A DNA stretch of 64,000 bases, taken from Frankiales bacterium (GTDB lineage Bacteria > Actinomycetota > Actinomycetes > Mycobacteriales > SCTD01). The stretch lies in the NCBI GenBank assembly GCA_025966135.1, contig JAOPVP010000043.1, positions 18,904-82,903 of the forward strand, given 5' to 3'. A program made the translations under genes and the position numbers. How positions within the stretch are numbered: the stretch's first letter is position 1; every line of letters starts with the position of its first letter. The notes under the pieces were generated by a model. The model was not told where the DNA came from. It was given only the letters and a program-made list of their open reading frames with translations, and ran no database searches. Shown here one piece after another: positions 1-30,913 of the stretch.

Positions 1-25
1 GGCGGCCCTCGCCCTCCTTGCCGGG

Positions 26-7099: not shown

Positions 7100-7161
7100 G
7101 ACCTGGCTCGCCGTGCCGCCGGAGCGGAGCGAGCCAGGTCGTGCGTCGAGGCCGCGCCTCG

Positions 7162-8619: not shown

Positions 8620-8732
8620 GCTTCTCTTCCTGTCGGCCGGCTCGCGTGACTGCCGGACTCGTCCGTGCAGGAGGGTTTCGCCCTTGCACACGGGGAGTCG
8701 CTGGCATGCGTATCTCCCCGACCAGAAGTACC

Positions 8733-8757
8733 TCGACGGCTGGCGAAAATTGCTGAA
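8733..8757 (-). promoter_or_regulatory. Copy 1 of shared bipartite upstream motif TTCAGCAA-N10-CCGTCGA (coding-strand orientation), 113 nt upstream of the lyase-like gene
   Basis: Plus strand reads TCGACGG-N10-TTGCTGAA; same words and identical spacing at 21551-21575 and 22994-23018. Confidence 0.4.
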
Positions 8758-8932
8758 GCGGAATGTCGGCATCGACGCGCCCATAGCGGGGCCGCCTCGC
8801 CTACCAGTCGGTGACCTGAAGGCAGGCGTCCGCACAAGCGAAGATTGTCCAGGATGCCAGGATTCCCATATTTGACAATGATGCTGCGGCCCGTTCCGCC
8901 CACCGTTGCGGCCGCGCCAGGTGTCGATACGG

Positions 8933-10323: not shown

Positions 10324-10449
10324 GGTTTCCCCTGCCCGATCGGGTCCCGTTTCGTTGTGGTGAGCCGGGAGCCGCGGGCGTGATACATCCGCGCCGAACG
10401 GCGACGTAGTGCCTTTGCATGGTCCGGGGGGTCGTGGCTGGGTGCCATC

Positions 10450-12908: not shown

Positions 12909-12921
12909 CCCCAGAGCGTGC

Positions 12922-14187
12922 TCACAGGGCCTCGACGTTGTCGCCCTTCATGCGGTTGCGGGTGTCGAAGACGTACCGCGCATGGGCAGTGATGAGGTCG
13001 TAGTCGAAGCAGTCGTGATCGGTCACCAGGATCACGGCGTGTGCCGCACGAACCTCGTCGGCGGTCAGCTCCACGCGGGTCACGCCGTCCGAGACCTGCT
13101 GCTCGCGGACGTGCGGGTCGCAGGCGTGGACCTCGGCCCCGAGGCTGAGCAGGCGTTCGGCGATGACGGCGCCAGGCGCCTGGCGGGCGTCCCCGGTGTT
13201 GCGCTTGTAGGACAGCCCCAGCAACAGCACCCGGGCCCCGTTGAGCGCAGTGCGCCGCCTGTTCAAGCCCAGCATCACTCGGCGCACGACATGATCCGGC
13301 ATGTGGTCGTTGACGTCGTTCGCCAACTCCACGAACCGGAAGCTCTGGCCCAACGTACGCCGGACGCTCCACGACAGGTAGCACGGGTCGATCGGGAGGC
13401 AGTGCCCGCCGACCCCCGGTCCGGGGGTGAACGGCATGTACCCGAACGGCTTGGTCGAGGCCGCATCGATGGCTGCCCACACGTCGATCCCGAGATCGGC
13501 TGCGAACATCGCGAGCTCGTTCACCAGGGCGATGTTCACATGGCGGAAGGTGTTCTCGATGAGCTTGGCGAGCTCCGCCTCACGTGGGGAGGGGACCGCG
13601 ACGGTGCGGCAGACCAGGAGGTCGTAGAACTGACGCACCTGCTCGAGCGAGTGGTGGTCGACGCCGGAGATGATCTTCGGGGTGTTCTCGAGCCGCCACG
13701 TGGGATTACCAGGATCGATGCGCTCGGGGCTGTAACCGAGCGAGAAGTCCAGACCGGGGCGGAGCCCGCTACCTGCCTGAAGGATCGGTCCGACGACCTC
13801 CTCGGTCGTGCCCGGGTAGCTGGTGGACTCGAGTACGACGAGGGCGCCCGGTCGAAGGTGCCGGGACAGCGTCTCGGCGGCGGCCTCGACGTACGACAGG
13901 TCTGGCGCCCCATCCGCGAGCGGCGTGGGGACCGTCACCACGGCGACGTCGAACCCGGCGCACACGTCCGGGCTGGTCGAGGCTCTCAGGCGGCCGGTCG
14001 CGAGGCAGGAGTCGAGCAGCTCATCGCTGATGTCCTCGATGTAGGAGTGACCTGCGCACAGCGCGTCCACGCGCGCACCGGAGACGTCGTAACCCGCGAC
14101 CCGCCGGCCGGTCTGCACCGCGCGGACCGCAAGGGGAAGCCCGACGTAGCCGAGACCGACCACCACCACCTTGTCCTGTGTGCTCAT
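12922..14187 (-). CDS. Nucleotide-sugar 6-dehydrogenase (UDP-GlcNAc/UDP-ManNAc dehydrogenase type; WbpA/TviB/WecC family)
   Basis: VVVVGLGYVGLPLA Rossmann motif and GPGVGGHCLPIDP catalytic-Cys motif; ATGA overlap with the upstream PAP2 gene. Confidence 0.9.
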   Translation of the reverse strand: MSTQDKVVVVGLGYVGLPLAVRAVQTGRRVAGYDVSGARVDALCAGHSYIEDISDELLDSCLATGRLRASTSPDVCAGFDVAVVTVPTPLADGAPDLSYVEAAAETLSRHLRPGALVVLESTSYPGTTEEVVGPILQAGSGLRPGLDFSLGYSPERIDPGNPTWRLENTPKIISGVDHHSLEQVRQFYDLLVCRTVAVPSPREAELAKLIENTFRHVNIALVNELAMFAADLGIDVWAAIDAASTKPFGYMPFTPGPGVGGHCLPIDPCYLSWSVRRTLGQSFRFVELANDVNDHMPDHVVRRVMLGLNRRRTALNGARVLLLGLSYKRNTGDARQAPGAVIAERLLSLGAEVHACDPHVREQQVSDGVTRVELTADEVRAAHAVILVTDHDCFDYDLITAHARYVFDTRNRMKGDNVEAL

Positions 14188-17703: not shown

Positions 17704-18714
17704 ATGGCCCAGAGCGTTGGCCGAGTGCTCATCGTCGGCCCGTCGAGGGTGGGCGACATGGCCTGGTTCCTGGCCCTTGCCTACCGGCGGCTGCGGTGGC
17801 AGGTCGTGCAGTTCGACGACCGCGCTTTCGTGGGCAGGCGTCTGCCGGGCGTGGCCGGGACGGCGTTGCAGGTCCTGGAACGGGACCACCGCCTGACGGA
17901 CCGGACGCGGCGGCTCGGTCAACTCGTTCTGGCGAGAGCTGGGGACTGCGACCACGTGGTCACGGTCAAGGGTGAGTACTTCCTCCCGGAGGACGTGGCG
18001 GCCATCTCCTCGCGCGTGCCATTCCTCAACTGGCACCCCGACCACCCGGTCCTCGACCAGAGCTTTGCCTGCATCCCGCACTACACGTCCTTCTGCCCCA
18101 AGGACTCCTGGAGCACGCAGCGCCTGCGCAACATGGGTCACCTCAACGTGACGACGCTGCCGCACGCCTCGGACCCGACGCTGCTCGGTGGTCCGCAGCA
18201 GGAGGCAGCCGGGCCCTCGATGTCCGTCGTGGGCGGCATGTACCCCTACCGTCGGCACTGGATCGACCAGGCCAGGGGGCTCGGCCTGAACGTGCGCATC
18301 TGGGGGAACGACGGTGGGGCAGGCGATCCCGCGGTGATCGCCCGCAAGCGACAGGCGCTCGGTGTCGAGCAGGGCCGTGCCTTGCGGGCCGGCTGCTTCA
18401 CCCTGAACACGCACCACCCGCATGATGTCGCCGGTGGCAACCAGCGCCTGTTCGACGCCGCCGCGGCCTGCGCGCCGCAGCTCACCGAGCGCCTGCCCGA
18501 GTCGGTCAGGCACTTCAAGCCCGACACCGAGATCGCGACGTTCGAGGACCGCGATCAGTTCCTGAGCCAGGTGAGGGAGCTGGTTGCGAACCGACGTCTG
18601 CGCGAGAGTCTCGGACGCAACAGCCACGAACGAGTGCGCGAAGAGCACACCTACGAGCACCGGGTGCAGACCATCCTGACGCTGCTGGGACATCCGCTGG
18701 AGACCGCGTGCTGA
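17704..18714 (+). CDS. CgeB-like glycosyltransferase family protein
   Basis: C-terminal pattern NQRLFDAAAACAP.L......V..F.P..EIATFED..QF...V..L..N..LRE.LG.N..ERV..EHTYEHR typical of the CgeB/Glyco_trans_1_2 family. Confidence 0.6.
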   Translation: MAQSVGRVLIVGPSRVGDMAWFLALAYRRLRWQVVQFDDRAFVGRRLPGVAGTALQVLERDHRLTDRTRRLGQLVLARAGDCDHVVTVKGEYFLPEDVAAISSRVPFLNWHPDHPVLDQSFACIPHYTSFCPKDSWSTQRLRNMGHLNVTTLPHASDPTLLGGPQQEAAGPSMSVVGGMYPYRRHWIDQARGLGLNVRIWGNDGGAGDPAVIARKRQALGVEQGRALRAGCFTLNTHHPHDVAGGNQRLFDAAAACAPQLTERLPESVRHFKPDTEIATFEDRDQFLSQVRELVANRRLRESLGRNSHERVREEHTYEHRVQTILTLLGHPLETAC

Positions 18715-19742
18715 AGCTGGAACGACTTGCCTTCGAGGACGTCGACTGGGCGCGGCTCGACGCGCTCGAGGACCGGGTGCTGTTTCAGACGAGCGCCTGG
18801 CTCTCCTTCGTCGCGGAGACCCAAGGAGCAGAGCCTGTGGTCGCCGTTCTCCGGGAGGGTGGCGACGATCGCGGTTGGTTCACCGGGCTGGTGTGCCAGC
18901 GGTTCGGGGTGCGGGTCCTCGGTGCCCCCATGCCGGGGTGGAGCACGCAGTACCTGGGCTGCAACCTGCTTCCTGGCACGCCGCGCCGAGAAGCGCTTCA
19001 GGCTCTGGTCCCCTTCGCGTTCGGGGAGCTCCGGTGCAGTCATCTCGAGGTCTGCGACCGATGGGCCTCGGTGCCGGACCTGTCGGGCCTCGGTGGGCAG
19101 CACGACGACGTGCCGACGTTCGTGGTCGACCTGAGACCGAGTGAGGGGGAGATCCGCGCGCGCATGACCAGCGGGACTCGGCAGAACCTGCGCAAGGCGG
19201 TGCGCGGCGAGCTGGTGGTCGAGGACGCGGCGCCCGAGGGCTTTGCTGCGGAGTACTACGCCCAGCTGCAGGACGTCTTCGCCAAGCAACGGCTCGTCCC
19301 CACCTATCCGCTCCGGAGGGTGGAGAAGCTCATCGAGCACCTCCACCCGACGGGAAGGCTTCAGCTCATTCGGGTTCGTGCTCCGAACGGCAGGTCCATC
19401 GCCACCGCACTGGTCGCGGGCCTTGGCCAGACCGCGTACTTCTGGGGCGGCGCGAGCTGGCGCTCGCAGCAGCAGCTGCGTCCCAACGAGCTGTTGTTCT
19501 GGCATGCCTTCAGCACCTGGAAGAGTCGCGGCGCGCTGGAGTTCGACTTCGGCGGGGGCGGCGACTACAAGCGCAAGTACGGCGCCAGCGCCTTGTCCGT
19601 GCCCCACGCACGGGTGTCGAAGTGGCGGGTGCTGGCCCATCTGCGGGACGCAGCGAAGCGCTCGGTAGCTGTCCGGCAGCAGGCCGTGGGCGCGCTCCAC
19701 GGCACGTCGGCCAAGCGGGGGAGCAGCACAACGCCGGCGTGA
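18708..19742 (+). CDS. FemAB-like / Acetyltransf_6 (BioF2-like GNAT) acyl- or aminoacyl-transferase
   Basis: FQTSAWLSFV...YFWGGASWRSQQQLRPNELLFWHAFSTWKSRGALEFDFGGGGDYKRKYGA. GTG start overlaps the upstream stop. Confidence 0.7.
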   Translation: MLKLERLAFEDVDWARLDALEDRVLFQTSAWLSFVAETQGAEPVVAVLREGGDDRGWFTGLVCQRFGVRVLGAPMPGWSTQYLGCNLLPGTPRREALQALVPFAFGELRCSHLEVCDRWASVPDLSGLGGQHDDVPTFVVDLRPSEGEIRARMTSGTRQNLRKAVRGELVVEDAAPEGFAAEYYAQLQDVFAKQRLVPTYPLRRVEKLIEHLHPTGRLQLIRVRAPNGRSIATALVAGLGQTAYFWGGASWRSQQQLRPNELLFWHAFSTWKSRGALEFDFGGGGDYKRKYGASALSVPHARVSKWRVLAHLRDAAKRSVAVRQQAVGALHGTSAKRGSSTTPA

Positions 19743-19799: not shown

Positions 19800-21509
19800 C
19801 TAGTGGCCGCCCTCGTAGGCGCCGATGTCCACGGCCGGGCCCTGGGGTCGTGCGGCCAGGTCCATGTCGTAGGTCGGAGCGCCCTGGCTCGTGCCCTTGT
19901 TGATGGCCGGGCTGGCGGCGCGAAGGTGGTAGTCGCCACCGGTGCTCGCCTGGTAGTTGACGAACTGCGGGTCCCCGGTGATGGTGCCCGTCGGCGTGGA
20001 GCCACCGATGAGGCTGTAGCCGCCACTGGCGTTGCCGTTGAGCAGGTTGTCCGCGTAGGTGTTCTGGCCGGCGCGACCCATCTCCCGGATGCCGTAGTAC
20101 CCGTTGTTGACGACGATGTTGTTGGTCACGACGTTGTTGCTGGCGATGCCGGGGGCGATGTCGTTGCCCTCGAGCGAGCCGCCGATGACCATGCCGCCCT
20201 GCTTGTTCTCGAACACCGTGTTGTTGGAGATGGTGATCGTGTTGGCGTTGTGCCAGAGGTGAATGCCCCACCCGCTGGTCTGGTAGACGATGTTGTCCAG
20301 GATGCGGCCGCCGTTGGGGCCTTGGTAGTAGATGCCGTGGATGAGACCGCAGCCGCTCGTCGGCGCGAGGATGTCATTGACGACGTTGCCGATCGAGTCG
20401 TTGTTGTGCTCGGAGTAGTTCTGCAGCTCGATACCGGCACCGCCACGGCTGCAGCCCGGCGGGACCATGTGGTGGATGTGGTTGCCGAGGAACTTGCCGT
20501 TCGAGGCGGTCGACATGATCCCGCTGTACTGGGAGTCGGCGATGTCGAAGTTCTCGATGACGATCCAGTCACCGGTGTTGGTCCAGGCATTGGTGCTGCC
20601 CGGTGCACTGATCTTCGCGCCCCACTTGCTGCTGGACAGGAAGATGATCGGCGCGCTGGACGTGCCGCTGTTGCTGGAGGTGACAGCGCCGTAGGTCCCT
20701 GGGGCAACGTGGACGACGGTGCCCGCGCTGGCGACACTCGCGGCCTTCTGCACCTGCCGGAACGGCTGGCTGCTGGTGCCCGGGTTGCTGTCGCTACCTG
20801 TCGGCGAGACGTACAGCGCATGGGATCCCGTGGTGGGCCAGGGGTTTGTCGGCGTGCTGGTCGGCGCGGTGCTCGCCGTCGGTGCTGTGGTCGGGCTGGT
20901 GGTGGGCTTGGTAGTGGTTGCAGCGGTGGGACTGGAGGTCGGGGTGGCGGACGGCGCCGGTGCCGGGGTGCTCGTGGCCTGGACCTCGATGCCGTCGATC
21001 TTGGCGTTGTTCACCGCGGCACTGAAGCCCACATCGACCTTCGAGTCGGTGGTCCGGACCGGCACGCTGACGTCGTAGGCAGTCGTCGCCCCGATCGTCT
21101 TGACGAGGTCCAGGTTCGCCACGACTGTCTGTCCCTCCGCCGTGACCGAGAACACACGCTGGCCAGGCCTGTTGGCCCAGTTCTCGGTGAAGTGCAGCTT
21201 GAGGTCGTAGATGCCCGGGGCCGGTACCGGGATGGTGTACCCGCTCATGCCGTACCGCTCGTCCTGGTAGGCGGTCTGGTCGGTGGTGTTGGCGACCGTC
21301 CGGTGGTTCGTGGCCGCGGTGCCACCGACGAAGTAGCGATCGGCGAGCCACTGCTTGCCTTGGGAGTCGGTGAAGCCGGGACCGCCCGAGTTGATGCGGA
21401 CGCTCCATGGCCCGCTCGTGGCGGCCGAGGCGGACGCGGTGTGTAGCGCTGCTGCCGCTGGCACCAAGGCCAACGGCAGCAGAGCGAGTGCAGTCTTCTT
21501 GAGACGCAT
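19800..21509 (-). CDS. Secreted malectin-domain + Thr/Pro linker + right-handed parallel beta-helix protein (paralog 1)
   Basis: Signal peptide MRLKKTALALLPLALVPAAAALHTASASA. Malectin-like INSGG...QWLADRYF...LHFTENW...RVFSV. TP-rich linker. Beta-helix repeats (NNTVFENKQGGMVIGG, VTNNIVVNNG). C-terminus DIGAYEGGH. Confidence 0.85.
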   Translation of the reverse strand: MRLKKTALALLPLALVPAAAALHTASASAATSGPWSVRINSGGPGFTDSQGKQWLADRYFVGGTAATNHRTVANTTDQTAYQDERYGMSGYTIPVPAPGIYDLKLHFTENWANRPGQRVFSVTAEGQTVVANLDLVKTIGATTAYDVSVPVRTTDSKVDVGFSAAVNNAKIDGIEVQATSTPAPAPSATPTSSPTAATTTKPTTSPTTAPTASTAPTSTPTNPWPTTGSHALYVSPTGSDSNPGTSSQPFRQVQKAASVASAGTVVHVAPGTYGAVTSSNSGTSSAPIIFLSSSKWGAKISAPGSTNAWTNTGDWIVIENFDIADSQYSGIMSTASNGKFLGNHIHHMVPPGCSRGGAGIELQNYSEHNNDSIGNVVNDILAPTSGCGLIHGIYYQGPNGGRILDNIVYQTSGWGIHLWHNANTITISNNTVFENKQGGMVIGGSLEGNDIAPGIASNNVVTNNIVVNNGYYGIREMGRAGQNTYADNLLNGNASGGYSLIGGSTPTGTITGDPQFVNYQASTGGDYHLRAASPAINKGTSQGAPTYDMDLAARPQGPAVDIGAYEGGH

Positions 21510-21550
21510 ACGAGAGAACTCCTGAGTTATCGGGGGCTACCTCCCGTGTT

Positions 21551-21575
21551 TCGACGGTCACGCAAAGTTGCTGAA
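21551..21575 (-). promoter_or_regulatory. Copy 2 of bipartite motif TTCAGCAA-N10-CCGTCGA, 41 nt upstream of the paralog 1 start
   Basis: Plus strand TCGACGG-tcacgcaaag-TTGCTGAA. Confidence 0.4.
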
Positions 21576-21649
21576 CCGATGTGTACCGAGTTTCTGTCAC
21601 TCCATGTAGCCCCAAGATCACCAACAGTGGTCGATCTCAGAGTGCACAC

Positions 21650-21681
21650 CGGCGGCGTGACCCTGTGAGGCCACGCCGCCG
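21650..21681 (-). terminator. 10-bp GC hairpin downstream of beta-helix paralog 2, sequence-related to the hairpin at 19732-19760
   Basis: CGGCGGCGTG-(12 nt)-CACGCCGCCG. Confidence 0.4.
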
Positions 21682-21697
21682 CTGAGGTGCTGTCCGT

Positions 21698-21780
21698 GTT
21701 GCGACATCGCTCGTTGCGACGTTGCAGGTTGCGACCGTGCTGAATGCGACCGTGCTGACGGCATTCGTGCCGGTTGCGAC
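21698..21780. repeat. 15-bp tandem repeat, six units, core octamer GTTGCGAC
   Basis: GTTGCGAC at 21698, 21713, 21728 and 21773. AATGCGAC at 21743; degenerate unit at 21758. Exact 15-nt phasing; abuts the stop of paralog 2. Confidence 0.8.
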
Positions 21781-22950
21781 TCAGTGGCCGCCCTCGAAGG
21801 CGCCGATGTCCATGGCTCCGGCCTGGGGCCGAGGCGCCAGCATGAGGTCGTAGCGGGGTGCACGTAGCGTGGTTCCCCTGTTGACTGCCGGACTGGTGCG
21901 GCGCAGGCGGTAGTCACCACCGCCGGCGGCCCGGTAGTTCACGAACTGCGGGTTCTTGGCGATGGTGCCCGTGGGCCGGCCTCCGCCGATCAGGCTGTAG
22001 CTGCCGTTCGAGTTGCCGTAGACCAGGTTGTTCGCGTAGGTGTTCTTGCCGGCGCGACCCATCTCCCGGATGCCGTAACGCCCGTTGTAGACGGCGATGT
22101 TGTTGGTCACGACGACGCCTCGCACGATGCCAGGGGCGATGTCGTTGCCCTCGAGCGAGCCGCCGATGACCATGCCGCCCTGCTTGTTCTGGAAGACCGT
22201 GTTGTTGGAGATGGTGATGTTGTTGGCGTTATGCCACAGATGGATCCCCCACCCGCTGGTCTGGTAGACCAGGTTGTTCAGGATCCGACCGGCGTTCGGG
22301 CTCTGGTAGTAGATGCCGTGGATGCGGGCGCAGTCACCGGGCGCCATGATGTTGTGGATCACGTTGCCGATGCTGTCGTTGTTGTGGGCCGAGTAGTTCT
22401 CGGCCACGATGCCGGCGCCACCCCTGTCGCAGGTCGGAGCGGCGAGGTGGTGGATGTGGTTGCCGAGGAACTTGCCGTTGGAGCTCGTGGTCATGATGCC
22501 GTTGTAGTCGGCGCCCGTGATGTTGAACTTCTCGATCACGACCCACTCGCCGGTGTTCGTCCAGGCGCTCGTGTTGTGGGGCGCGCTGATAGTGGCCCGC
22601 CACTTGCTGTCGGACAGGAAGATGATCGGTGCCCTGGAGGTTCCGTTCCTGGTCGACGTGACGGGACCGTACGTGCCCGGGCGGACGTGCACGATGGTGC
22701 CCGCGGCGGCGACGCTGGCGGCCTTGTTGACCTGCCGGAAAGGCCGGGCCTGGGTGCCCGGGTTGCCGTCGCTCCCGGTGGGGGAGACGAAGAGCTGTCG
22801 CTTTCCGGTGGTGGGCCAGGGGTGCGTCGTGGCGGTGGTGACGCTGGCCGAGAGGCTGGTAGCCGAGGCTGTGGAGCCGGTAGGCAGGACTGCGGTAGCT
22901 GCCAGTAGCGTCAAGGGCAACGCCGCAAGGGCTGTCTTGGTGAGGTGCAT
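21781..22950 (-). CDS. Secreted right-handed parallel beta-helix protein (paralog 2)
   Basis: Signal peptide MHLTKTALAALPLTLLAATAVLP; about 70% identical by eye to the beta-helix part of 19800-21509; ends MDIGAFEGGH. Confidence 0.85.
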   Translation of the reverse strand: MHLTKTALAALPLTLLAATAVLPTGSTASATSLSASVTTATTHPWPTTGKRQLFVSPTGSDGNPGTQARPFRQVNKAASVAAAGTIVHVRPGTYGPVTSTRNGTSRAPIIFLSDSKWRATISAPHNTSAWTNTGEWVVIEKFNITGADYNGIMTTSSNGKFLGNHIHHLAAPTCDRGGAGIVAENYSAHNNDSIGNVIHNIMAPGDCARIHGIYYQSPNAGRILNNLVYQTSGWGIHLWHNANNITISNNTVFQNKQGGMVIGGSLEGNDIAPGIVRGVVVTNNIAVYNGRYGIREMGRAGKNTYANNLVYGNSNGSYSLIGGGRPTGTIAKNPQFVNYRAAGGGDYRLRRTSPAVNRGTTLRAPRYDLMLAPRPQAGAMDIGAFEGGH

Positions 22951-22993
22951 GCGAGGAGGTCTCCTGCGTGTTCGGGGGTACCTCCTTTCGTTG

Positions 22994-23018
22994 TCGACGA
23001 CCTCGCGTCATTGCTGAA
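22994..23018 (-). promoter_or_regulatory. Copy 3 of bipartite motif TTCAGCAA-N10-TCGTCGA, 43 nt upstream of the paralog 2 start
   Basis: Plus strand TCGACGA-cctcgcgtca-TTGCTGAA. Confidence 0.4.
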
Positions 23019-23080
23019 ACGATGTGCACACGCTCGGAGCTGGGCGCACCCTCGAGCGCGGCCGAGCAGCCTCGCTGGGG

Positions 23081-24205
23081 TCAGTGACCGCCCTCATAGG
23101 CGCCGATGTCCACGGCAGGACCTTGTGGCCGAGGGGCCTCGAGAAGGTCGTAACCGGGTGCCCCCAACGTGGTCCCCGCGTCGAGTGCCGGACTGGTGGA
23201 GCGCAGCCGGAAGTCGCCGCCATCAGACTGGTAGTCCACGAACTGCGGGTTCTGTGTGATGGTGCCCGAACGCGCGGCCCCGCGCCTGAGGCGGTAGCCG
23301 CCCTTGCTGTTGCCGTAGACCAGGTTGTCCGCGTAGGTGTTGTGGCCGACGCGACCGCTCTCACCGATGCCGTAGTGCCCGTTGTAGGCCGCGATGTTGT
23401 TGGTCACGAGGATGTTGCTGGCGAGGCCTGGGGCAACGTCGTTGCCCTCCATCGACCCGCCGATGAGCATGCCGCCCTGCCGGTTCTGGACGAGGGTGTT
23501 GTTGGAGATGGTGATGTTGCTCGCGTTGTGCCACAGGTGGATGCCCCACCCGCTGGTCTGGTAGATCACGTTGTTCAGGATCCGACCGGCGTTCGGGCTC
23601 TGGTAGTAGATGCCGTGGATGCGGGCGCAGTCACCAGGCGCGAGGATGTTGTGGATCACGTTGCCGATGGCGTCGTTGTTCTGAGACGTGTAGCTCTCGG
23701 CCACGATGCCGGCGCCACCGCGCGAGCAGGTCGGAGCGGCCAGGTGGTGGATGTTGTTGCCCAGGAAGGTGCCGTTGGAGCTCGTGGTCACGATGCCGTT
23801 GTAGTCGGCCCGCGTGATCGAGAACTCCTGGATCACGACCCACTGGCCGGAGTTGCTCCACGCGCTCGTGTGCCCAGGCGCGCTGATGATCGCCTGCCAC
23901 CTGCTGTCGGATCGGAAGGTGATCGGCGCGCTGGACGTACCGCTTCGGCTGGAGGTCACCGGGCCATACGTGCCAGGAGCGACGTGTACGACGGTGCCGG
24001 CGCCGGCGACCTGGGCGGCCTTGTTGACCTGCCGGAAGGGTCGGCTGCGGGTGCCTGGGTTGCTGTCGCTCCCCGACGGGGCGACGAACAGCTGCCGTGT
24101 TCCCGTGGTGGCGGTCCCTGGGCCTCCTGTCTTCGAGGGCAGTGTCAAGACCGCGGCCAAGATCACCAGTGGCAACGCGGCAAGGGCTGTCTTGGTGAGG
24201 TGCAT
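23081..24205 (-). CDS. Secreted right-handed parallel beta-helix protein (paralog 3)
   Basis: MHLTKTALAALPLVILAAVLTLPS signal peptide (ATG 24205); same architecture; ends VDIGAYEGGH. Confidence 0.85.
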   Translation of the reverse strand: MHLTKTALAALPLVILAAVLTLPSKTGGPGTATTGTRQLFVAPSGSDSNPGTRSRPFRQVNKAAQVAGAGTVVHVAPGTYGPVTSSRSGTSSAPITFRSDSRWQAIISAPGHTSAWSNSGQWVVIQEFSITRADYNGIVTTSSNGTFLGNNIHHLAAPTCSRGGAGIVAESYTSQNNDAIGNVIHNILAPGDCARIHGIYYQSPNAGRILNNVIYQTSGWGIHLWHNASNITISNNTLVQNRQGGMLIGGSMEGNDVAPGLASNILVTNNIAAYNGHYGIGESGRVGHNTYADNLVYGNSKGGYRLRRGAARSGTITQNPQFVDYQSDGGDFRLRSTSPALDAGTTLGAPGYDLLEAPRPQGPAVDIGAYEGGH

Positions 24206-24272
24206 CCGGGTAGATCTCCTGTGCCCGGAGCGTACCTCCGAGGGCTCGCGGGGCTCGCGCGCCACGGTCGCG

Positions 24273-25493
24273 CTATCTGGTTGGCTCGACATCCGGCACC
24301 TTCAGCTCGGGCACGGTCCGACGTCGAAGCAGCGCGTACCCGACCACCGCAGCCAGACCTTCGCCGCACAGGAGTGCGGTAGGCATGGCCCAGCTACGAC
24401 CGGTCTGCAGACCGGTGAGGACGGCGGCGACCACCAGCACCGGTGGGACGATGTTCATGACGATCCGTTGCGCGTCACCGAACGTTGCTACGAGCCCGAT
24501 CTCGATGACGTACTTGGGGCCCCAGACGACGAGCAACAGCGCGCCCAGGGCTGCGTAGCCACCGGCCTGCGCGTAGCTCGAGCCCAGTGCCGGCGCCAGC
24601 AGCGGGTGCCACAGGAGAACGGCCACACCGACCCCGAGCAGCGGTGGCATGGCCGCCCCGATCGCGGTACGGGCCGTGACAGGGCGGGTGCCGGTGAGCA
24701 GGTGGGGCAGCGCGTTCTGGAGCAGGAGCCACAGGGCGTTGGCGGCCGCTGCGGAAGCCCGCATACCGAGTGCGAACGCCCCGGCCGCCCGCGGGTTGCC
24801 GGTGGAGGCCATGGTCGCGAGCGCCAGAGGCACGGAGATCTGGCCCCCCACACCTGCCGCACCGAACATCAAGGACGTCCTGAGGTGCCGCAGCCAGGCG
24901 GTCCAGGACGGTGTCCAGGTGGGTAGGGACCCATGCCGGGCGAGGATGTACATCGCGACGGTGGCTCCTGCCAGGGGGGACAGCCCGTACCCGAGGGCAT
25001 ACGCGACGCCGTCTCCCGACGGCACCAGGATCCAGGCCACCACAAGGGTGACGACGGCCGCCCAGTTGGCAGCACCTAGCTGCAGCAGCTGGCCCCTGGC
25101 GCGCAACCACCAGTCCGGAAACAGCGCGTACGCCAGCAGGTAGGGGCTCATCGCCAGGAGGAGCCGCCCATCAGGGGCGTGGTAGGCCCGGGTGAGGAGC
25201 AGCACGGCGACGAGTCCGGCGCTGACGACCGCGGCAAGGGCCAGGTAGAGGCTGAAGATCTCGCTGCCCAGCCGTTGTTGCGCAGCCCCGCTGCTGGCAG
25301 CGAGGGTGCGGATGGAGTAGCCGGCCTGGCCAAGGTCAATGGCCCACCAGGCATAGCCGGTCCAGCTGAGGGCTACCGCGAAGAAGGCGAACTCCGAGGC
25401 ACCCAGCCGCCTGGCTACGAGCAAGACACCAAGGAAGGCGACCAGCTTTGGCAGCCAGTCGGACATCACGGTCAACAGCACGGTTCGCCGCAC
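24273..25493 (-). CDS. Wzx-type polysaccharide flippase (MOP superfamily)
   Basis: About 12 hydrophobic spans and N-terminal LPKLVAFLGVLLVARRLGASEFAFFAVA typical of Polysacc_synt. Start uncertain (GTG 25493 chosen; ATG 25466 or 25649 possible). Confidence 0.75.
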   Translation of the reverse strand: MRRTVLLTVMSDWLPKLVAFLGVLLVARRLGASEFAFFAVALSWTGYAWWAIDLGQAGYSIRTLAASSGAAQQRLGSEIFSLYLALAAVVSAGLVAVLLLTRAYHAPDGRLLLAMSPYLLAYALFPDWWLRARGQLLQLGAANWAAVVTLVVAWILVPSGDGVAYALGYGLSPLAGATVAMYILARHGSLPTWTPSWTAWLRHLRTSLMFGAAGVGGQISVPLALATMASTGNPRAAGAFALGMRASAAAANALWLLLQNALPHLLTGTRPVTARTAIGAAMPPLLGVGVAVLLWHPLLAPALGSSYAQAGGYAALGALLLVVWGPKYVIEIGLVATFGDAQRIVMNIVPPVLVVAAVLTGLQTGRSWAMPTALLCGEGLAAVVGYALLRRRTVPELKVPDVEPTR

Positions 25494-25746: not shown

Positions 25747-27015
25747 ATGAAGACCCTGAGTCGGGTCTCCCGTCGTGCGCTCCTCCGCGCGGGGTCGAGC
25801 GAAGCCGAGTCGCGCGAACCGGCAGGTGACCTCGATGCCGTCCTGCTGGGCGAGAACATGGACATGGCTCACGCGCTTCGAGCCACCGGAGCGCGCGTCA
25901 CGGTCGTCGGTGGGCGGCACACTCCCGCGAGGTTCTCCCGCTACGACTTCCGCTGGCGGGCGGATCCGCGCCCGGGCGATGCGCGGCTCGTGGGTCGACT
26001 CATCGAGCTGGCCGCTGCCCGACCCGCGGCGCTCTTCTACGAGACGGACCGGGACCTGCTGTTCGTCTCCCGGAACCGACATCTGCTGGGCGACGGGCTG
26101 AGGCTCGTGCTTCCTCCCGCCGGCCTCATCGAGCAGCTGGTGGACAAGGGAGCGTTCGAGGCCCTGGCCCAGCGGTTGGACCTCTGCGTCCCGCCGAGCT
26201 GGGTGATCCGCACGGGCCGCCCGCGAAGAGCCCTCGACGTGCAGTTCCCGGTGTTGGTGAAGCCGTGCATGCGGGATGCGCTCTGGGCGGGGAGGGCGCA
26301 TGGGCAGAAGGCCTTCGTCGTGCATGACGCCGCTCAGCTGGATGAGTTCCTCGGGGGGCTGGCCGGGACCTACGACACGGTGGTCGTGCAGACCTACGTT
26401 CCCGGCTCGGAGACACGGGTGGAGAGCTATCACGTCTACATCAACGCAGCGGGCCACATCGCTGCAGAGTTCACCGGACGCAAGATCCGCACCTGTCCGT
26501 CGGAGAACGGCTTCTCGACGGCGCTCATCACCACGGACAGCGCGGATGTCAGGGAGCTCGGCAGGTCGGTCGTACGTGCCCTGAACCTCGTCGGAGTCGC
26601 GAAGCTCGACTTCAAACGAGACCCGGACGGGAAGCTGTGGCTGCTCGAGGTCAACCCCCGGTTCAACCTCTGGCACCGGATCGGGGCCAAGGCAGGCGTC
26701 AACATCCCTCAGATCGTGATGGCCGACCTGTGCGGACGTCCGCGCCCGCCAACGCCCGCCGCGCGTCCCGGGGTCGCTTGGTGTCATGTGCCGAAGGACC
26801 TTCTGGCGGCGCGCGAAGCCGGGCTCACGTGCCGTCAGTGGCTCAGCTGGGCGCGAAAGTGCGACACCACCACGGGTCTCGACGTCACCGACCCGCTTCC
26901 CTTCCTCGCGGGCAGGCTCTGGCCACTCGTCGCGGCAAGGGTCCGACCGACCACCGCGGTCCGTGGTCACGCGAGCCCGCCATCCTCCGACGGCACGCAA
27001 CCGCTTGCAGGCTAA
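25747..27015 (+). CDS. ATP-grasp domain protein (predicted carboxylate-amine ligase, COG3919-like)
   Basis: FPVLVKP, VVVQTYVPG and AKLDFKRDPDGKLWLLEVNPRFNLWH match ATP-grasp core elements. Confidence 0.8.
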   Translation: MKTLSRVSRRALLRAGSSEAESREPAGDLDAVLLGENMDMAHALRATGARVTVVGGRHTPARFSRYDFRWRADPRPGDARLVGRLIELAAARPAALFYETDRDLLFVSRNRHLLGDGLRLVLPPAGLIEQLVDKGAFEALAQRLDLCVPPSWVIRTGRPRRALDVQFPVLVKPCMRDALWAGRAHGQKAFVVHDAAQLDEFLGGLAGTYDTVVVQTYVPGSETRVESYHVYINAAGHIAAEFTGRKIRTCPSENGFSTALITTDSADVRELGRSVVRALNLVGVAKLDFKRDPDGKLWLLEVNPRFNLWHRIGAKAGVNIPQIVMADLCGRPRPPTPAARPGVAWCHVPKDLLAAREAGLTCRQWLSWARKCDTTTGLDVTDPLPFLAGRLWPLVAARVRPTTAVRGHASPPSSDGTQPLAG

Positions 27016-27919: not shown

Positions 27920-29095
27920 GTGGAGTTCGGCTGGAGCGAAGAGCAGTCAGCCCTGCGTGAGCAGGCGGTGCGATTCGGCCGCGAGATGCTCGACGGCGGC
28001 GTCCTCGAGGACGACCTGTCCGGCCGCTTTCCCGCCGAGAAGTGGCGGTTGCTCGCTGACTGGGGCTACTTCGGGCTCGCGGTGCCGGAGGAGCTCGGGG
28101 GACCCGGACTGGACCCCATGACCGGACTGCTCGTCACCGAGGGCTTGGCCGAGGGCTGCCAGGACTTTGGCCTGCTCTTCTCGGCAAGCGTGCAGGCATG
28201 GGTCGTGATCGGCGCGCTGCTCCGCTTCGGCACCGAGGACCAGCTGGACCGGCACCTGCCCGGGCTCGCCGACGGCACGACGGTCGGTGCGCTCGCGATC
28301 ACGGAGCCCGACTGCGGGTCCGATGCCCTGTCCCTCCGCACCACCGCCCGCGAGGTCCACGGCGGCTGGCTCCTCCGAGGTCGCAAGGCGTACGTCACCA
28401 ACGCGCCCATCGCCGATCTGGTGCTCTGCTTCGCGTCCTCCGGGGCAACGCAGCTGCTCGGAGGCATGAGCGCCTTCCTCGTCGAGACGTCGCGCGAAGG
28501 TGTCCACCGCGGCTCGGTCGAGCCGAAGATGGGCCTGCGCACGTCGCCCTTGGGCGAGCTCGGTCTCGATGACGTCTTCGTGCCCACCGGGGAGCTGCTC
28601 GGCAAGCTCGGCCGCGGCGTCGCCGTCTTCCACGACGCGATGGCCTGGGAGCGCACCTGGCTGACCGCCCTGCAGGTCGGGACCCTGCAGCGCCAACTGG
28701 ACGAGACCAGGGCTTACGCGTGCGAGCGCCGGGCCTTCGGCATCCCCATCGCCGGCCACCAGTCGGTGGCCCACCGGATCGTCGACATGCACCTGCGGCT
28801 GGAGTGCGGCCGGTTGCTCGTCTACCGCGCCGCCGCCGCCATCGCCGCCGGTCGCCCGGCGGGGACCGAGGCCGCGCTCGCGAAGCTGTGGATGAGCGAG
28901 AGCGCGCTCGCCAGCAGCCTGGACAGCCTGCAGGTGCACGGCGGCAACGGCTACCTCAGCTGTAGCGGTGTGGAGCGCCAGGTGCGCGACGCCGCAGGCG
29001 GCCAGATCTACTCCGGTACCTCCGAGATGATGCGCAACCTGGTCGCGGACAGCCTCGGTCTGCACGCACGACCCACAACTGTGGCCGTGGAGTGA
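27920..29095 (+). CDS. Acyl-CoA dehydrogenase-family flavoprotein (candidate acyl/aminoacyl-S-carrier-protein dehydrogenase)
   Basis: Full-length ACAD architecture (GALAITEPDCGSD, WITNA-like YVTNAP, C-terminal QIYSGTSEMMRNLVA); GTG start with GGAG 10 nt upstream. Confidence 0.9.
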   Translation: MEFGWSEEQSALREQAVRFGREMLDGGVLEDDLSGRFPAEKWRLLADWGYFGLAVPEELGGPGLDPMTGLLVTEGLAEGCQDFGLLFSASVQAWVVIGALLRFGTEDQLDRHLPGLADGTTVGALAITEPDCGSDALSLRTTAREVHGGWLLRGRKAYVTNAPIADLVLCFASSGATQLLGGMSAFLVETSREGVHRGSVEPKMGLRTSPLGELGLDDVFVPTGELLGKLGRGVAVFHDAMAWERTWLTALQVGTLQRQLDETRAYACERRAFGIPIAGHQSVAHRIVDMHLRLECGRLLVYRAAAAIAAGRPAGTEAALAKLWMSESALASSLDSLQVHGGNGYLSCSGVERQVRDAAGGQIYSGTSEMMRNLVADSLGLHARPTTVAVE

Positions 29096-29099
29096 CGGG

Positions 29100-30650
29100 G
29101 TGGCCTTCCGCGTCGAGCACCTGCTGAGGGACGCAGCGGCTGCCCGGCCTCTGGCGACGGCCCTGCGTGCCGGGGACGCCGAGGTCACGTGGGCCGAGCT
29201 CGACGCCGCCTCCGACCGCGTCGCCAGCTGCCTGGTGGGCCAGGGCATCGGTGTCGGGGACCGGGTGGGCCTCTACCTCGACAAGGGCGTGGAGGCCGTC
29301 GCCGCGCTCTACGGCACGATGCGCGCCGGCGCAGCGTATGTCCCCATCGATCCTGATGGCCCCGTGGTACGCGCGGCTGCGATCGCGACCGACTGCGCGC
29401 TTGCGGCGATCATCTCGGACCCCAGGCGGGTCGCGGCGCTCCGGGCGGTCGCCCCGGCGGCGGCGCCCGGCGGCATCGTGTGCGGCGACGCCATCGAGGG
29501 GTTCGTCTCCTGGACGCAGGTCCAGGAGAGCCAGCCCCGGGAGCCTGCGCGCCCGGTCGTAGAGACGGACCTGGCGTACGTCCTGTACACGTCCGGCTCC
29601 ACCGGACGGCCGAAGGGCGTGGCGATCACCCACCGCAACGCGCTCACCTTCGTGAGCTGGGCACGCGACGTGCTCGGGCTCCAACCTGACGACGTGCTGT
29701 CCAATCACGCGCCGCTCCACTTCGACCTGTCGACGCTCGATCTGTTCGGCGCAGCGTCGGTCGGCGCAACCACGTGTCTGGTGCCCGAGGCGGCCGCCAG
29801 CTTCCCGGCGCAGCTGGCCCGTTGGATCGACGACTCGGGAATCACGGTCTGGTACTCCGTGCCCACGGCGCTGTCCATGCTGGTGCGCTACGGCAACCTG
29901 GCGTCGGTTCCCTTCTCCGCCCTCCGGCTCGTCCTGTTCGCAGGCGAGGTCTTCCCCAACCGTTACCTGTCCGAGTTGATGCGTCTTGTTCCAGATCCCC
30001 GGTACTTCAACCTGTTCGGTCCGACAGAGAGCAACGTCTGCACCTACTACGAGGTCACCGAGCCGCCGACCCTGCACAGCTGCCTCCCGATCGGTACGGC
30101 CTGCGCCAATAGCCGGTGCGAGGTCGTGGACGAGGCGGGCGTCGTACGCCACGGCATCGGCGTACAGGGCGAGCTGGTTGTCACGGGCCCAGGGGTGGCG
30201 CAGGGCTACTGGGGCAACCCCGAGCTGACCGCGGAGCGCTTTCCGGCTCCCCACACCTACCGCACCGGCGATGTCGTCGAGGTCATGGACGACTCCCACA
30301 ACCCGTCCTTCCGCTTCCTCGGTCGTCGGGACCAGCTCGTGAAGACCCGCGGGTACCGGGTGGAGCTCGGCGAGGTCGAAGCGGCGCTGTACGCCCACCC
30401 GCATGTTCGCGAGTGCGTCGCGGTGCCTGTCCCCGACGAGGCCGTCGGCAACCGCATCCTTGCGTTCTGCGCCCCGGCGGGCACCGTGTCCGAGGGGGAC
30501 CTGGCTGAGGCGTGTCGAGGGCGCTTGCCCGCCTACATGGTTCCGGAGCGGATCGTCTTCGTGGACGCCCTCCCCACGACACCGAACGGCAAGTACGACC
30601 GGAAGCGGCTGGCGGAGAGTGCCGCTGGTCTGACAGGAGTGTCCAGGTGA
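29100..30650 (+). CDS. Stand-alone amino-acid adenylation enzyme (ANL superfamily, NRPS A-domain type)
   Basis: Core motifs MRAGAAYVPID, LAYVLYTSGSTGRPKGV, FDLS, NLFGPTE, GELVVTGPGVAQGYWGNPELT, YRTGD, GRRDQLVKTRGYRVELGEVE, LPAYMVP and NGKYDRKRL. Confidence 0.9.
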   Translation: MAFRVEHLLRDAAAARPLATALRAGDAEVTWAELDAASDRVASCLVGQGIGVGDRVGLYLDKGVEAVAALYGTMRAGAAYVPIDPDGPVVRAAAIATDCALAAIISDPRRVAALRAVAPAAAPGGIVCGDAIEGFVSWTQVQESQPREPARPVVETDLAYVLYTSGSTGRPKGVAITHRNALTFVSWARDVLGLQPDDVLSNHAPLHFDLSTLDLFGAASVGATTCLVPEAAASFPAQLARWIDDSGITVWYSVPTALSMLVRYGNLASVPFSALRLVLFAGEVFPNRYLSELMRLVPDPRYFNLFGPTESNVCTYYEVTEPPTLHSCLPIGTACANSRCEVVDEAGVVRHGIGVQGELVVTGPGVAQGYWGNPELTAERFPAPHTYRTGDVVEVMDDSHNPSFRFLGRRDQLVKTRGYRVELGEVEAALYAHPHVRECVAVPVPDEAVGNRILAFCAPAGTVSEGDLAEACRGRLPAYMVPERIVFVDALPTTPNGKYDRKRLAESAAGLTGVSR

Positions 30651-30913
30651 AGGACCACCAGGAGCAGACGCCGGTGGACGCGGTCAGGCAGGTGCTGTCC
30701 TCCGTGGTGGGTGCGAACCGCGTGCAGCAGGTGCGCGACGACGACCTCATCTTCGAGCACCGGGTCATCGACTCACTGCACGTGGTCGAGTTCGTGGAGA
30801 GGATCGAGACGACCTTCGGTCTCGAGGTGGACGGCGCCGACCTCACCTCGGAGAACTTCTCCTCGCTACAAGCGATCGCGCGGTTCGTCGAGGCCCGGCA
30901 GGCGGTGTCGTGA
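30647..30913 (+). CDS. Acyl/peptidyl carrier protein (88 aa)
   Basis: GTGA overlap with the adenylation gene; VIDSLHVVEFVERIETTFG carries the phosphopantetheinyl-Ser motif. Confidence 0.8.
   Translation: MKDHQEQTPVDAVRQVLSSVVGANRVQQVRDDDLIFEHRVIDSLHVVEFVERIETTFGLEVDGADLTSENFSSLQAIARFVEARQAVS

Follow-up and report, generated by a model that had tools for sequence, protein, structure and literature searches.

Accessory beta-helix enzymes are an established theme in exopolysaccharide (EPS) loci, and the findings given here do not overturn current understanding. AlgG and AlgE1-7 are periplasmic or secreted beta-helix enzymes whose substrate is an already polymerised uronate chain; tandem paralog arrays and multi-A-module proteins occur in the AlgE family, and Azotobacter has seven AlgE epimerases. 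For the PL9 enzyme Pel9A of Dickeya (1ru4), Jenkins et al. are said to have described in 2004 a Ca2+ cluster of D209, D233, D234 and D237, with Lys273 as the catalytic base. RbmB of Vibrio cholerae, which is encoded beside the vps clusters, is a lyase for Vibrio polysaccharide (VPS) that uses Lys227 as base, aided by Ca2+; in the polymer it cuts, an amide bond joins an amino acid to a uronic acid (PMC12993940, PMC11637428). WceF/AmsF is the tailspike-like glycanase of the stewartan/amylovoran cluster (Pantoea stewartii, Erwinia), for which the title of the report names a bacteriophage tailspike-like fold (PMC7949094). It is a beta-helix glycan-modifying enzyme encoded in a Wzx/Wzy EPS cluster, and acts on the producer's own polymer.

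The window, i.e. the whole stretch of 64,000 nucleotides that was analysed, lies on a Frankiales MAG contig and holds genes for Wzy_C, Wzz, Wzx, GT2, three GT4 proteins, UDP-glucose dehydrogenase (UGDH), polysaccharide deacetylase, AsnB, ATP-grasp, FemAB-like GNAT, AMP-binding and ACP proteins. Beyond wzx lie three genes annotated as hypothetical, here called bH1, bH2 and bH3 (Table 1). Their open reading frames (ORFs) are exactly those given in the preliminary description, all on the minus strand and directed the same way as wzx, and its reading of the products as secreted right-handed beta-helix paralogs in a Wzx/Wzy-type locus agrees with the computed fold and domains and with N-termini that look Sec-like on inspection. 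The location resembles that of RbmB, a secreted beta-helix enzyme in or near the locus of the polymer that it cleaves, and the chemistry of the RbmB substrate matches the ATP-grasp, FemAB, AsnB and UGDH content found here; RbmB, however, is a single gene with no tandem array. Two PF14099 lyase-like proteins are encoded in the same locus. Thus, the trio is not its sole candidate glycan-cleaving activity, and there would be less need for another depolymerase.

Table 1. Features of the beta-helix gene region, with positions in the window.
Feature	Position	Strand	Description
bH1	23081..24205	-	proximal paralog, 374 aa, JWM02_1850; putative signal peptide, short Gly/Thr linker, beta-helix, choice-of-anchor-Q cap
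bH2	21781..22950	-	middle paralog, 389 aa, JWM02_1849; putative signal peptide, ~20-aa Ser/Thr linker, helix, cap
bH3	19800..21509	-	distal paralog, 569 aa, JWM02_1848; putative signal peptide, malectin, Thr/Pro linker, helix, cap
bH3 malectin (CBM57-type) carbohydrate-binding domain, aa 37-168	21006..21401	-	PF11721
bH3 Thr/Pro/Ser/Ala-rich linker, aa ~179-222	20844..20975	-	read from translation
bH3 choice-of-anchor-Q C-terminal cap, aa 514-566, end VDIGAYEGGH	19812..19970	-	NF041518, 45.9 bits
wzx-type flippase	24273..25493	-	directly upstream of bH1; PF01943, 33.4 bits
promoter-like motif TTCAGCAA-N12-GTCGA	21551..21575	-	in conserved ~75-nt leader of bH3
promoter-like motif TTCAGCAA-N12-GTCGA	22994..23018	-	in bH2 leader
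FemAB-like GNAT (Acetyltransf_6)	18708..19742	+	convergent neighbour of bH3; adjacency kept in syntenic loci and distant L078

All three proteins match PF13229 Beta_helix above the Pfam gathering threshold (42–54 bits, cutoff 25.9) and NCBIfam TIGR03804 repeats; bH1 has Pfam Beta_helix, DUF1565 and Pel9A-like N-cap matches. The shared DIGAYEGGH-type C-terminus noted earlier corresponds to NF041518 choice_anch_Q, which is above cutoff in each protein (36.2–46.1 bits versus 25, profile positions 1–56 of 58). bH1 and bH2 each encode an equivalent cap at the 3' end, and no sorting signal follows the cap in bH1-3, which stop at GGH. PF11721 Malectin was found in bH3 only (E=6.7e-26, 91.6 bits versus a cutoff of 23, profile positions 3–145 of 163); orthologs have the same N-terminal domain, fused here to an uncharacterised helix instead of a known GH. 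Each N-terminus begins with M(H/R)L(T/K)KTALA..LPL, includes K/R within the first 6 residues and continues into a 12-aa hydrophobic core (mean Kyte-Doolittle 2.1–2.8). This start pattern is conserved among orthologs and appears Sec-like, so judged by inspection; bH1-3 are putative exported proteins. The two conserved Cys residues in each protein, exactly two in every case, would fit an extracytoplasmic disulfide. bH1 is a 100% match to protein P0001, and bH2 and bH3 correspond to P0002 and P0006.

The copies had been judged about 70% identical, and 66–74% was measured (66–70% overall to bH3, 68–74% pairwise over the trimmed helix). As they diverge by ~20–25% at the nucleotide level, the copies are no assembly duplicate, and the artefact that the preliminary description named as grounds for refutation is rejected by protein differences of 26–34%, dS of 0.42–0.63 and the two-copy syntenic relatives. 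The dN/dS it had called for is 0.37–0.42 pairwise, hence all three copies are maintained. A dip in GC over the trio (65.5% versus 69–71%) is due to a first-position GC of 0.55 that stems from the Asn/Ile/Thr/Ser-rich composition of the helix; horizontal import was rejected as its cause, since GC3 is 0.87–0.90, equal to or above that of the neighbours. Long antisense ORFs (19803–21446 and 23024–24382, both on the plus strand, and others) were taken as high-GC artefacts because their GC profile over the three codon positions does not suit a coding sequence.

The orthologs of bH3 in L001, L002, L004 and L005 (66–72% full-length identity) always lie beside the FemAB-like gene, and the malectin copy occupies this place in every one of four syntenic actinobacterial MAG loci. 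Between it and wzx, relatives have 0, 1 and 1 short copies, and there are 2 here. Beta-helix copies per syntenic locus number 1, 2, 2 and at least 2, compared with 3 in this locus; a fixed single copy is not the case, and copy number at the wzx/FemAB-like slot is evolutionarily fluid. In a neighbour-joining (NJ) tree of the trimmed helix (Kimura, with bootstrap), bH1 and bH2 form a sister pair (91% bootstrap) outside the malectin clade. The malectin-less copies L001a and L003 nest within that clade (99% bootstrap), which indicates malectin loss in duplicates. The malectin domain and Thr/Pro linker reported for the distal copy were found, but not as a gain by that copy: since the malectin copy is conserved in all four syntenic loci, malectin gain is ancient and outside this triplication, and bH3 is the conserved ortholog of the locus. 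Nor is triplication special, as arrays of 2–6 copies occur in 38 of 76 related loci.

The wzx product is a modest Polysacc_synt match (cutoff 28 bits) with syntenic homologs 58–78% identical, and start analysis places its true start at ~25466–25493, not 25865. A gap of 67 nt between the stop of wzx (24273) and the ATG of bH1 (24205) was confirmed. Translation of bH1 from the alternative start at 24292 is unlikely, since every paralog and ortholog opens with MxLxKTALA. Given this gap, the lack of any terminator-like site on the minus strand, and the absence before bH1 of the promoter-like motif that precedes bH2 and bH3, the co-transcription of bH1 with wzx suggested earlier is plausible. Read-through from wzx probably serves bH1, and bH2 and bH3 would each use their own conserved promoter-like leader. 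The bH3 leader recurs upstream of the orthologs in L001 and L002. A sigma-70 promoter scan found nothing, and an Rfam scan of the leaders and region gave no match.

The AF2 model of bH1 (pLDDT 91, pTM 0.87) is an all-beta solenoid with strand triplets at residues 95–334, and residues 1–34 are disordered or of low pLDDT; membership of the right-handed beta-helix class is supported by profile and by this model. An Asn ladder (N150, N182, N212, N236, N270 and N294) is 96–100% conserved. The model matched 53 PDB beta-helices at E<=1e-3, and the best global fold matches are polysaccharide-active: 1ru4 (TMq 0.67/TMt 0.63), the PL6 protein 7dmk (0.60) and BT_1002 5mqp (0.58). The Bacteroides PL9 rhamnogalacturonan (RG) lyase 5olq gave TMq 0.56–0.59, and 5olr 0.59–0.61. 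RbmB 9ozl was also matched, though weakly (TMq 0.30) and with no conserved Lys here equivalent to its Lys227, and WceF/AmsF was absent from the sequence matches and top fold matches.

PL9 is thus the best global structural match, with the N-cap motif 'yV.p.GsD.npGt...Pf.t...A......pG..v.v.pGtY' common to both and the same solenoid register over ~270 residues, but identity is only 16–19%. The PF22842 Pel9A-like profile covers positions 5–55 of 370, i.e. the N-cap, so that full-length profile similarity to PL9 is lacking, and a phmmer search of PDB sequences matched the N-cap only (aa 53–95). In a weak profile alignment (domain E=5e-4; Pel9A numbering offset checked against the 1ru4 sequence), 'SDDGFDLFD' stands against 'sgWGIHLWH' and 'NGFKLGG' against 'nddaPgg'. 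There, D233/D234/D237 of Pel9A fall on G/S-W-..-H of 'sgWGIHLWH', D209 on a position that is Asp in 65% of the family and Asn in bH1 and bH2, and Lys273 on Ala/Ser; a DDG[FY]D motif is absent from bH1-3. The NTD, G(D/Q)D, G(x)HG and RIK motifs of GH28 are likewise absent, and residue and motif tests did not place the proteins in PL1.

Across 295 family modules, no helix-body carboxylate is conserved above ~74%. The conserved functional-site residues are H153 (93%), Y200 (96%), H226 (88%), W225 (82%), H223 (79%), Y172 (77%) and Y215 (74%), and the cap residues D353, R359, D366 and G368 are kept in at least 92%. In place of the PL9 calcium and lysine residues, a His/Tyr/Trp set is conserved, which all three copies retain, and from coil periodicity the His/Tyr residues would lie on one face. 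As neither a conserved carboxylate nor a catalytic motif is present, catalysis itself is something that we infer. Of the domain assignments proposed in the preliminary description, Beta_helix, DUF1565 and malectin were matched, and PL9 (by residues), GH28 and AlgG motifs were not. Among the lyase, hydrolase and C5-epimerase roles that it named, the motifs single out none: the PL9, AlgG/AlgE and GH28 signatures are all absent.

At 50% identity the family falls into at least 2,841 clusters, with members in Actinomycetota, Oxalobacteraceae and Acidobacteriota, and it occurs in Wzx/Wzy polysaccharide loci across phyla. Literature on DUF1565 with exopolysaccharide or on choice-of-anchor Q yielded no characterised member. 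In Massilia a homolog lies between Wzx and Wzc/Wza; in L078 one follows the FemAB-like gene and precedes AMP-binding/PP-binding genes; in L079 three copies follow Wzy-GT-Wzx. Like EPS-locus-encoded self-glycanases (RbmB, WceF, AlgL-like roles), the trio is encoded within the locus of its candidate substrate, and it may cleave the cognate polymer.

With moderate confidence, bH1-3 are proposed to be secreted enzymes whose substrate is the uronate-containing polymer of their own locus. They would be Sec-exported members of an uncharacterised beta-helix family that is a regular accessory of Wzx/Wzy-dependent loci, and most likely bind the locus-made polymer, which probably contains uronic acid and is probably aminoacylated or acylated, so as to cut or remodel this polymer on the outer side of the membrane. 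By analogy with RbmB for Vibrio polysaccharide and WceF for stewartan, this processing may control chain length, release or matrix turnover. The ancestral, polymer-tethered member would be bH3, with the two short copies as later duplicates. All three paralogs keep 41–42 of the 42 positions conserved at >=90% across the family; the short copies diverge mainly at family-variable positions and thus probably differ in fine specificity or expression. The coils with GN(H/N)IHH, IHGIYY and WGIHLWH are the probable place of the active site, whose mechanism is probably His/Tyr acid-base catalysis and not of the calcium/lysine or two-carboxylate type.

The tandem arrays and multi-module giants are also compatible with pattern-forming epimerases, or with adhesins. 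Polymer-level modification, e.g. by C5-epimerases acting on exported uronate residues with paralogs writing patterns as the seven AlgE do, is unlikely. With its arrays of as many as 6 copies and its multi-module polypeptides the family resembles AlgE1-7, UDP-glucose dehydrogenase is encoded in this locus and near family members in ~15 others, the conserved set is His/Tyr-rich like the residues of epimerases and lyases, and the PF14099 genes could do the cutting. The AlgE6 A-module 5lw3 and the alginate epimerase/lyase 8ja4 are among the fold matches, but the TMq to 5lw3 is low (0.25), the DPH(D/E) / YG(F/I)DPH signature is absent from all three proteins, and neither an AlgG-type profile (E<=0.01) nor RTX-type R-modules occur among the Pfam/NCBIfam matches.

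It is distinctly unlikely that the proteins are non-catalytic glycan-binding or structural proteins of the surface or secreted matrix (adhesins, scaffolds) that organise the polysaccharide layer. The absence of an invariant carboxylate is in keeping with such a role, as are the choice-of-anchor-Q domain, weak partial NCBIfam matches of the N-terminal ~40–45 residues to the Leptospira LIC10774/LIC10365 surface family, and adhesin-like relatives with SLH, Calx-beta, PKD and fn3 domains or with as many as 22 fused modules in 6,359 aa. However, conserved polar His/Tyr residues at apparently solvent-facing positions on three consecutive coils are unusual for a pure scaffold, and the closest folds are all enzymes. 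Modules swapped within the family include malectin, F5/8-C, WSC, DUF4214, dockerin, SLH, fn3 and PKD, and swapping of carbohydrate-binding modules is typical of carbohydrate-active enzymes (CAZymes).

Secreted depolymerases directed against foreign polysaccharides (plant or microbial glycans, competitor matrices), placed in the locus by chance or co-regulation, are improbable. Malectin/CBM57 and other modules, PL9- and GH-like folds, occurrence in polymer-degrading soil lineages (Frankiales, Massilia, Acidobacteriota) and solo copies away from EPS loci (L003, L006) would agree with this role, but biosynthesis genes are strongly and repeatedly adjacent across phyla and four actinobacterial loci keep the placement between wzx and the FemAB-like gene. 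The 119 flanking ORFs of 32 non-actinobacterial loci include 16 GT4, 8+6 Wzx-type, 7 DegT, 5 Wzy_C, 4 AsnB and 4 AMP-binding members, with no sugar-uptake or catabolic family among the 25 most frequent. A phage arms race, in which the triplicated copies are decoys for or competitors of tailspike depolymerases, had also been raised and is very improbable: copy number varies and the fold has a generic likeness to phage beta-helix tail proteins, the extent of the support for phage escape, but the matches to viruses do not surpass the cellular matches in closeness (TMq <=0.62, 11–20% identity), no phage genes are nearby, dN/dS of ~0.4 gives no whole-gene sign of positive selection, and the family is chromosomal and locus-embedded across phyla.

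A more specific form of the enzymatic reading is offered tentatively, as a possibility we consider doubtful: the 'WGIHLWH' proteins may be a new metal-independent His/Tyr lyase/epimerase family for Wzx/Wzy polymers of aminoacylated or amidated uronic acids, whose tandem and fused forms diversify pattern like AlgE1-7 and share the dedicated promoter TTCAGCAA-N12-GTCGA.

Three 'hypothetical proteins' gain a well-supported structural and contextual annotation, with the malectin copy as anchor ortholog. Were the family shown to be enzymatic, carbohydrate-active enzymes would gain a class not yet catalogued, one that soil bacteria have very commonly and that goes with the making of their matrix and capsule polymers. 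It could then supply specific depolymerases, and help to explain how Actinomycetota, Acidobacteriota and Oxalobacteraceae control the size, release or pattern of their exopolysaccharides.

The three β-helix genes bH1, bH2 and bH3 are colinear reading frames on the minus strand, as the preliminary description of this DNA had held and as was borne out by an ORF check and alignment. Long plus-strand ORFs overlying them (19803–21446 and 23024–24382) were rejected as antisense artefacts of high GC content. The bH1 and bH2 proteins share 66–70% overall identity with bH3, and pairwise identity within the trio is 68–74% over the trimmed helix. Among the Pfam families suggested earlier, Beta_helix is matched above cutoff by all three proteins and DUF1565 only through the ~50-residue N-terminal cap, to which Pel9A-like matches are also confined. 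A Malectin match was found in bH3 only (E=7e-26, aa 37–168). The C-terminal (A/M/V)DIGA(Y/F)EGGH, previously described as common to all copies, is indeed shared and corresponds to the NCBIfam 'choice-of-anchor Q' domain. The N-termini (M-H/R-L-T/K-K-T-A-L-A...LPL and a hydrophobic core) are kept in orthologs and are disordered in the AF2 model; they look like Sec signals, and export is predicted. Each protein has exactly two Cys residues, located on adjacent loops (C160 and C193 in bH1) at sites conserved in 82% and 78% of the family, respectively, which suggests one disulfide.

The GC content of 19800–24300 is 65.5%, compared with 69–71% around it and ~69% for the window. This dip is due to amino acid composition, the proteins being rich in Asn, Ile, Thr and Ser (first codon position GC 0.55); GC3 stays high at 0.87–0.90, and hence the dip is no evidence of foreign origin.

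Features of the polysaccharide locus in window coordinates, with flanking genes identified by Pfam scans
Feature	Position	Strand	Remarks
Wzy_C	2–1435		
AsnB-type amidotransferase	1442–3340		
GT4	~3340–4500		
NAD epimerase/dehydratase	~4500–5450		
PF14099 (Pfam Polysacc_lyase) polysaccharide-lyase-like ORF	~5500–6238	+	
Methyltransferase	6230–7099		
Second PF14099 lyase-like protein (PF14099/fn3 gene)	7162–8618	minus	~485 aa; ATG at 8618
TTCAGCAA-N12-GTCGA	8733–8757	minus	upstream of PF14099/fn3 gene
LuxR-type response regulator (Response_reg + GerE)	8933–10297	minus	directly upstream of the PF14099/fn3 gene bearing the shared motif, in the same orientation
FemAB-like GNAT	18708–19742		
bH3	19800–21509	minus	569 aa; JWM02_1848 in the 88.6-kb 'Frankiales bacterium' MAG contig identical with the window, 'hypothetical protein'
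TTCAGCAA-N12-GTCGA	21551–21575	minus	upstream of bH3
bH2	21781–22950	minus	389 aa; JWM02_1849, 'hypothetical protein'
TTCAGCAA-N12-GTCGA	22994–23018	minus	upstream of bH2
bH1	23081–24205	minus	374 aa; JWM02_1850, 'hypothetical protein'
wzx, real start	near 25466–25493		
Decoration module (AsnB-type amidotransferase, FemAB-like GNAT, ATP-grasp ligase, acyl-CoA dehydrogenase, AMP-binding enzyme, carrier protein)	1442–3340, 18708–19742, 25747–27015, 27920–30913		
Protein at locus edge	33804–34898	+	364 aa; no Pfam match; 85% identity with L004:2597–3664 (syntenic Actinomycetota MAG)

Given a 52-sequence alignment, AF2 predicts bH1 with confidence (pLDDT 91, pTM 0.87) as a solenoid that is capped by a helix at its N-terminus. 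Foldseek against the PDB gave the lowest E-values for the GH136 lacto-N-biosidases 7v6i, 7v6m and 5gqc, with poor coverage (TMq 0.32–0.36). The best global match was the PL9 enzyme Pel9A (1ru4; TMq 0.67, 19% identity), others being the PL9 rhamnogalacturonan lyase 5olq/5olr, the PL6 alginate lyase 7dmk and the glycoside hydrolase BT_1002 (5mqp). Lower scores were obtained for PL31, GH120, RbmB, AlgE6 and pectin methylesterase, and the viral matches were generic tail-fibre helices. A sequence search of the PDB matches the trio only via the N-cap; in a profile search, the alignment reaches across 1ru4.

In Pel9A, the Ca2+ ligands are four Asp residues (D209, D233, D234 and D237) and the catalytic residue is Lys273; with a numbering offset of 25, all five literature residues fall on Asp or Lys in the 1ru4 chain. 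In the profile alignment, the Pel9A strand SDDGFDLFD, which carries D233, D234 and D237, is aligned with sgWGIHLWH of the family, and Lys273 (NGFKLGG) with Ala or Ser. At the D209 position, 65% of the family have Asp; bH1 and bH2 have Asn there. With the ligand and Lys273 positions thus changed, PL9 chemistry is not conserved. A motif check found AlgG/AlgE, GH28 and PL1 motifs absent from the trio. The preliminary description had proposed lyases, hydrolases or C5-epimerases; by the features tested (residues and motifs), the class of the trio is not PL9, AlgG/AlgE or GH28.

Among 295 modules, the conserved polar residues (bH1 numbering) are Y200 (96%), H153 (93%), H226 (88%), W225 (82%), H223 (79%), Y172 (77%), Y215 (74%), H185 (67%) and H197 (54%, with Gln in 38%), and the best carboxylates, D178, D186 and D257, are only 59–74% conserved. 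As judged by strand periodicity in the model, the polar set would lie on two adjacent sheets in three consecutive coils (GN.IHH, IHGIYY and WGIHLWH). This pattern favours, without proving, His/Tyr acid-base chemistry of the kind used by uronate-active lyases and epimerases that need no metal; a Ca2+/Lys lyase and a hydrolase with two carboxylates fit it less well. Polymer-level, epimerase-like modification by the trio is a rival reading considered unlikely. At positions at least 90% conserved, each paralog keeps 41–42 of 42 residues, and differences within the trio are concentrated at family-variable positions (95/156 vs 6/78); H185N and N186D occur in bH3 alone. The reading of the trio as non-catalytic glycan-binding surface proteins is likewise considered unlikely and is rated slightly below epimerase-like modification.

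The locus is of the Wzx/Wzy type. The LuxR-type gene is followed by genes for GT2, UDP-glucose dehydrogenase, GT4, a polysaccharide deacetylase, a Wzz-like protein and Glyco_trans_1_2, and then come the FemAB-like gene, the trio and Wzx. Beyond Wzx lie genes for an ATP-grasp protein, a metallophosphoesterase, an acyl-CoA dehydrogenase, an AMP-binding enzyme, a carrier protein, GT4 and a methyltransferase. Judging by this gene content, a uronic acid is probably a component of the polymer, which would also bear amino-acyl or acyl decorations. The PF14099 pair are further candidate polysaccharide lyases, of a fold different from that of the trio; the protein of the PF14099/fn3 gene has two fn3 domains, an Ig-like domain and a signal-like N-terminus (MSFKIQAKTGAVALACAAVA). 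Together with the trio, the locus has up to five candidate secreted glycan-active proteins.

A scan with one genome per species gave 76 loci, and tblastn with the window genes found four syntenic actinobacterial ones. L001 (Mycobacteriales MAG) has the order Wzx, short malectin-less copy, malectin copy (the bH3-type ortholog), FemAB-like gene, and L002 (Frankiales RYN_111), also with two copies, is arranged likewise. L005 (Frankiales RYN_184) has at least two copies at a contig end, and L004 (Actinomycetota MAG) only the malectin copy, short copies being found singly on further contigs (L003 and L006). Therefore, the malectin copy is the constant member, always adjoining the FemAB-like gene. 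The slot on its wzx side is occupied by 0, 1, 1 or 2 short copies, the window having two. Copy number is variable across these loci, with no fixed single copy.

An NJ analysis of the helix region (331 columns, 200 bootstraps) groups the malectin orthologs with 99% support; the malectin-less L001a and L003 fall inside this clade and are therefore duplicates from which the domain was lost. Outside it, bH1 pairs with bH2 (91%), and this pair is the sister group of the clade (91%). The short copies of L002, L005 and L006 form a separate, older clade (100%). Thus, the slot was filled independently by copies differing in age. The malectin fusion is older than the divergence of these lineages and no part of the triplication in the window; by synteny and the tree, the malectin copy is ancestral, not a derived copy that gained the domain, as had been supposed. 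Pairwise dN/dS in the trio, also suggested earlier as a check, is 0.37–0.42 (dS 0.42–0.63). Between bH1 and bH2, pS is 0.15–0.17 in alignment columns 325–425 vs 0.40–0.45 in flanking windows, and between bH2 and bH3 it is 0.14 in columns 425–475 vs 0.38–0.49. This mosaic, seen in small windows, is suggestive of gene conversion between neighbouring copies, and such tracts could distort the paralog tree.

A ~75-nt leader, shared by the two paralogs, precedes bH2 and bH3; its conservation extends to L001 and L002 and, less strongly, to L003, L004 and L005. Its pattern is (C/T)GGTTCAGCAA..N..GTCGA..GGGAGGTA.CCCC..AGGAG..ATG. Across the 64 kb of the window, there are exactly three copies of the core TTCAGCAA-N12-GTCGA, all of them on the minus strand. 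If as many as two mismatches are tolerated, the count rises to five; the shuffles predict 0.82, and not one of the 100 gave five. Exact cores also lie upstream of copies in L001 (3649–3673) and L002 (9201–9225). The end of wzx, 67 nt before the bH1 ATG, leaves bH1 with just the proximal half of the leader. This gap, described earlier together with co-transcription, is confirmed; bH1 would be read through from wzx. In the leaders and trio region, searches for Rfam families, sigma-70 matches and minus-strand terminator-like sites gave nothing. bH2, bH3 and the PF14099/fn3 gene would share a dedicated promoter or operator. The shared motif suggests a small dedicated regulon of secreted, putative glycan-active genes, controlled perhaps by an ECF sigma factor or by the LuxR-type regulator encoded next to the PF14099/fn3 gene.

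A search with a profile of 52 members (E≤1e-30, clusters at 50% identity) revealed a family of at least 2,841 clusters, including proteins with 2–22 modules. Accessory domains are SLH, fn3, PKD and Calx-beta, and also malectin, F5/8-C, WSC, dockerin or DUF4214. Two or more copies within 10 kb are present in 38 of the 76 loci (two in 29, three in 6, four in 1 and six in 2). Triplication is thus ordinary and multiplication the family norm, and the special significance first attached to the triplicated set is not upheld. The six-copy tandems are in the Oxalobacteraceae-type loci L037 (Massilia eurypsychrophila, 5695–13824) and L042 (5698–13853); P0121, P0141 and P0170 are single polypeptides of ~4,900–6,400 aa with 8–22 matched module stretches.

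The family neighbourhood is consistently one of polysaccharide biosynthesis. Among 119 flanking ORFs at 32 non-actinobacterial loci were 16 GT4, 8+6 Wzx-type, 7 DegT, 5 Wzy_C, 4 AsnB, 4 AMP-binding and 2 Poly_export. In Massilia R2A-15, Wzx and a copy are followed by Wzc and Wza, with four more Pel9A-like genes, and another contig (L079) has Wzy_C, GT, Wzx and then three copies. That the trio are enzymes for foreign glycans is considered unlikely, to about the same degree as the two rival readings above.

The observation made in the preliminary description is confirmed and its interpretation partly supported, with corrections on malectin origin, multiplication and catalytic class. The best-supported explanation, with about an even chance of being right, is that the trio are secreted processing enzymes for the polymer of their own locus. 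No characterised member of the family was found in the literature searched; RbmB (PMC12993940; PMC11637428) and WceF (PMC7949094) are close functional analogues of the trio.

In the distant locus L078 (JGI contig), Wzy_C and GTs come before the FemAB-like gene, which is followed by a copy, an uncharacterised gene, AMP-binding/PP-binding and Condensation genes and, further on, Poly_export, so that the adjacency of FemAB-like and β-helix genes is seen again together with AMP-binding/PP-binding genes. AsnB with AMP-binding recurs in the Acidobacteriota loci L007, L009, L010 and L020. These genes suggest a uronate polymer, aminoacylated or acylated, that would be common to several phyla.
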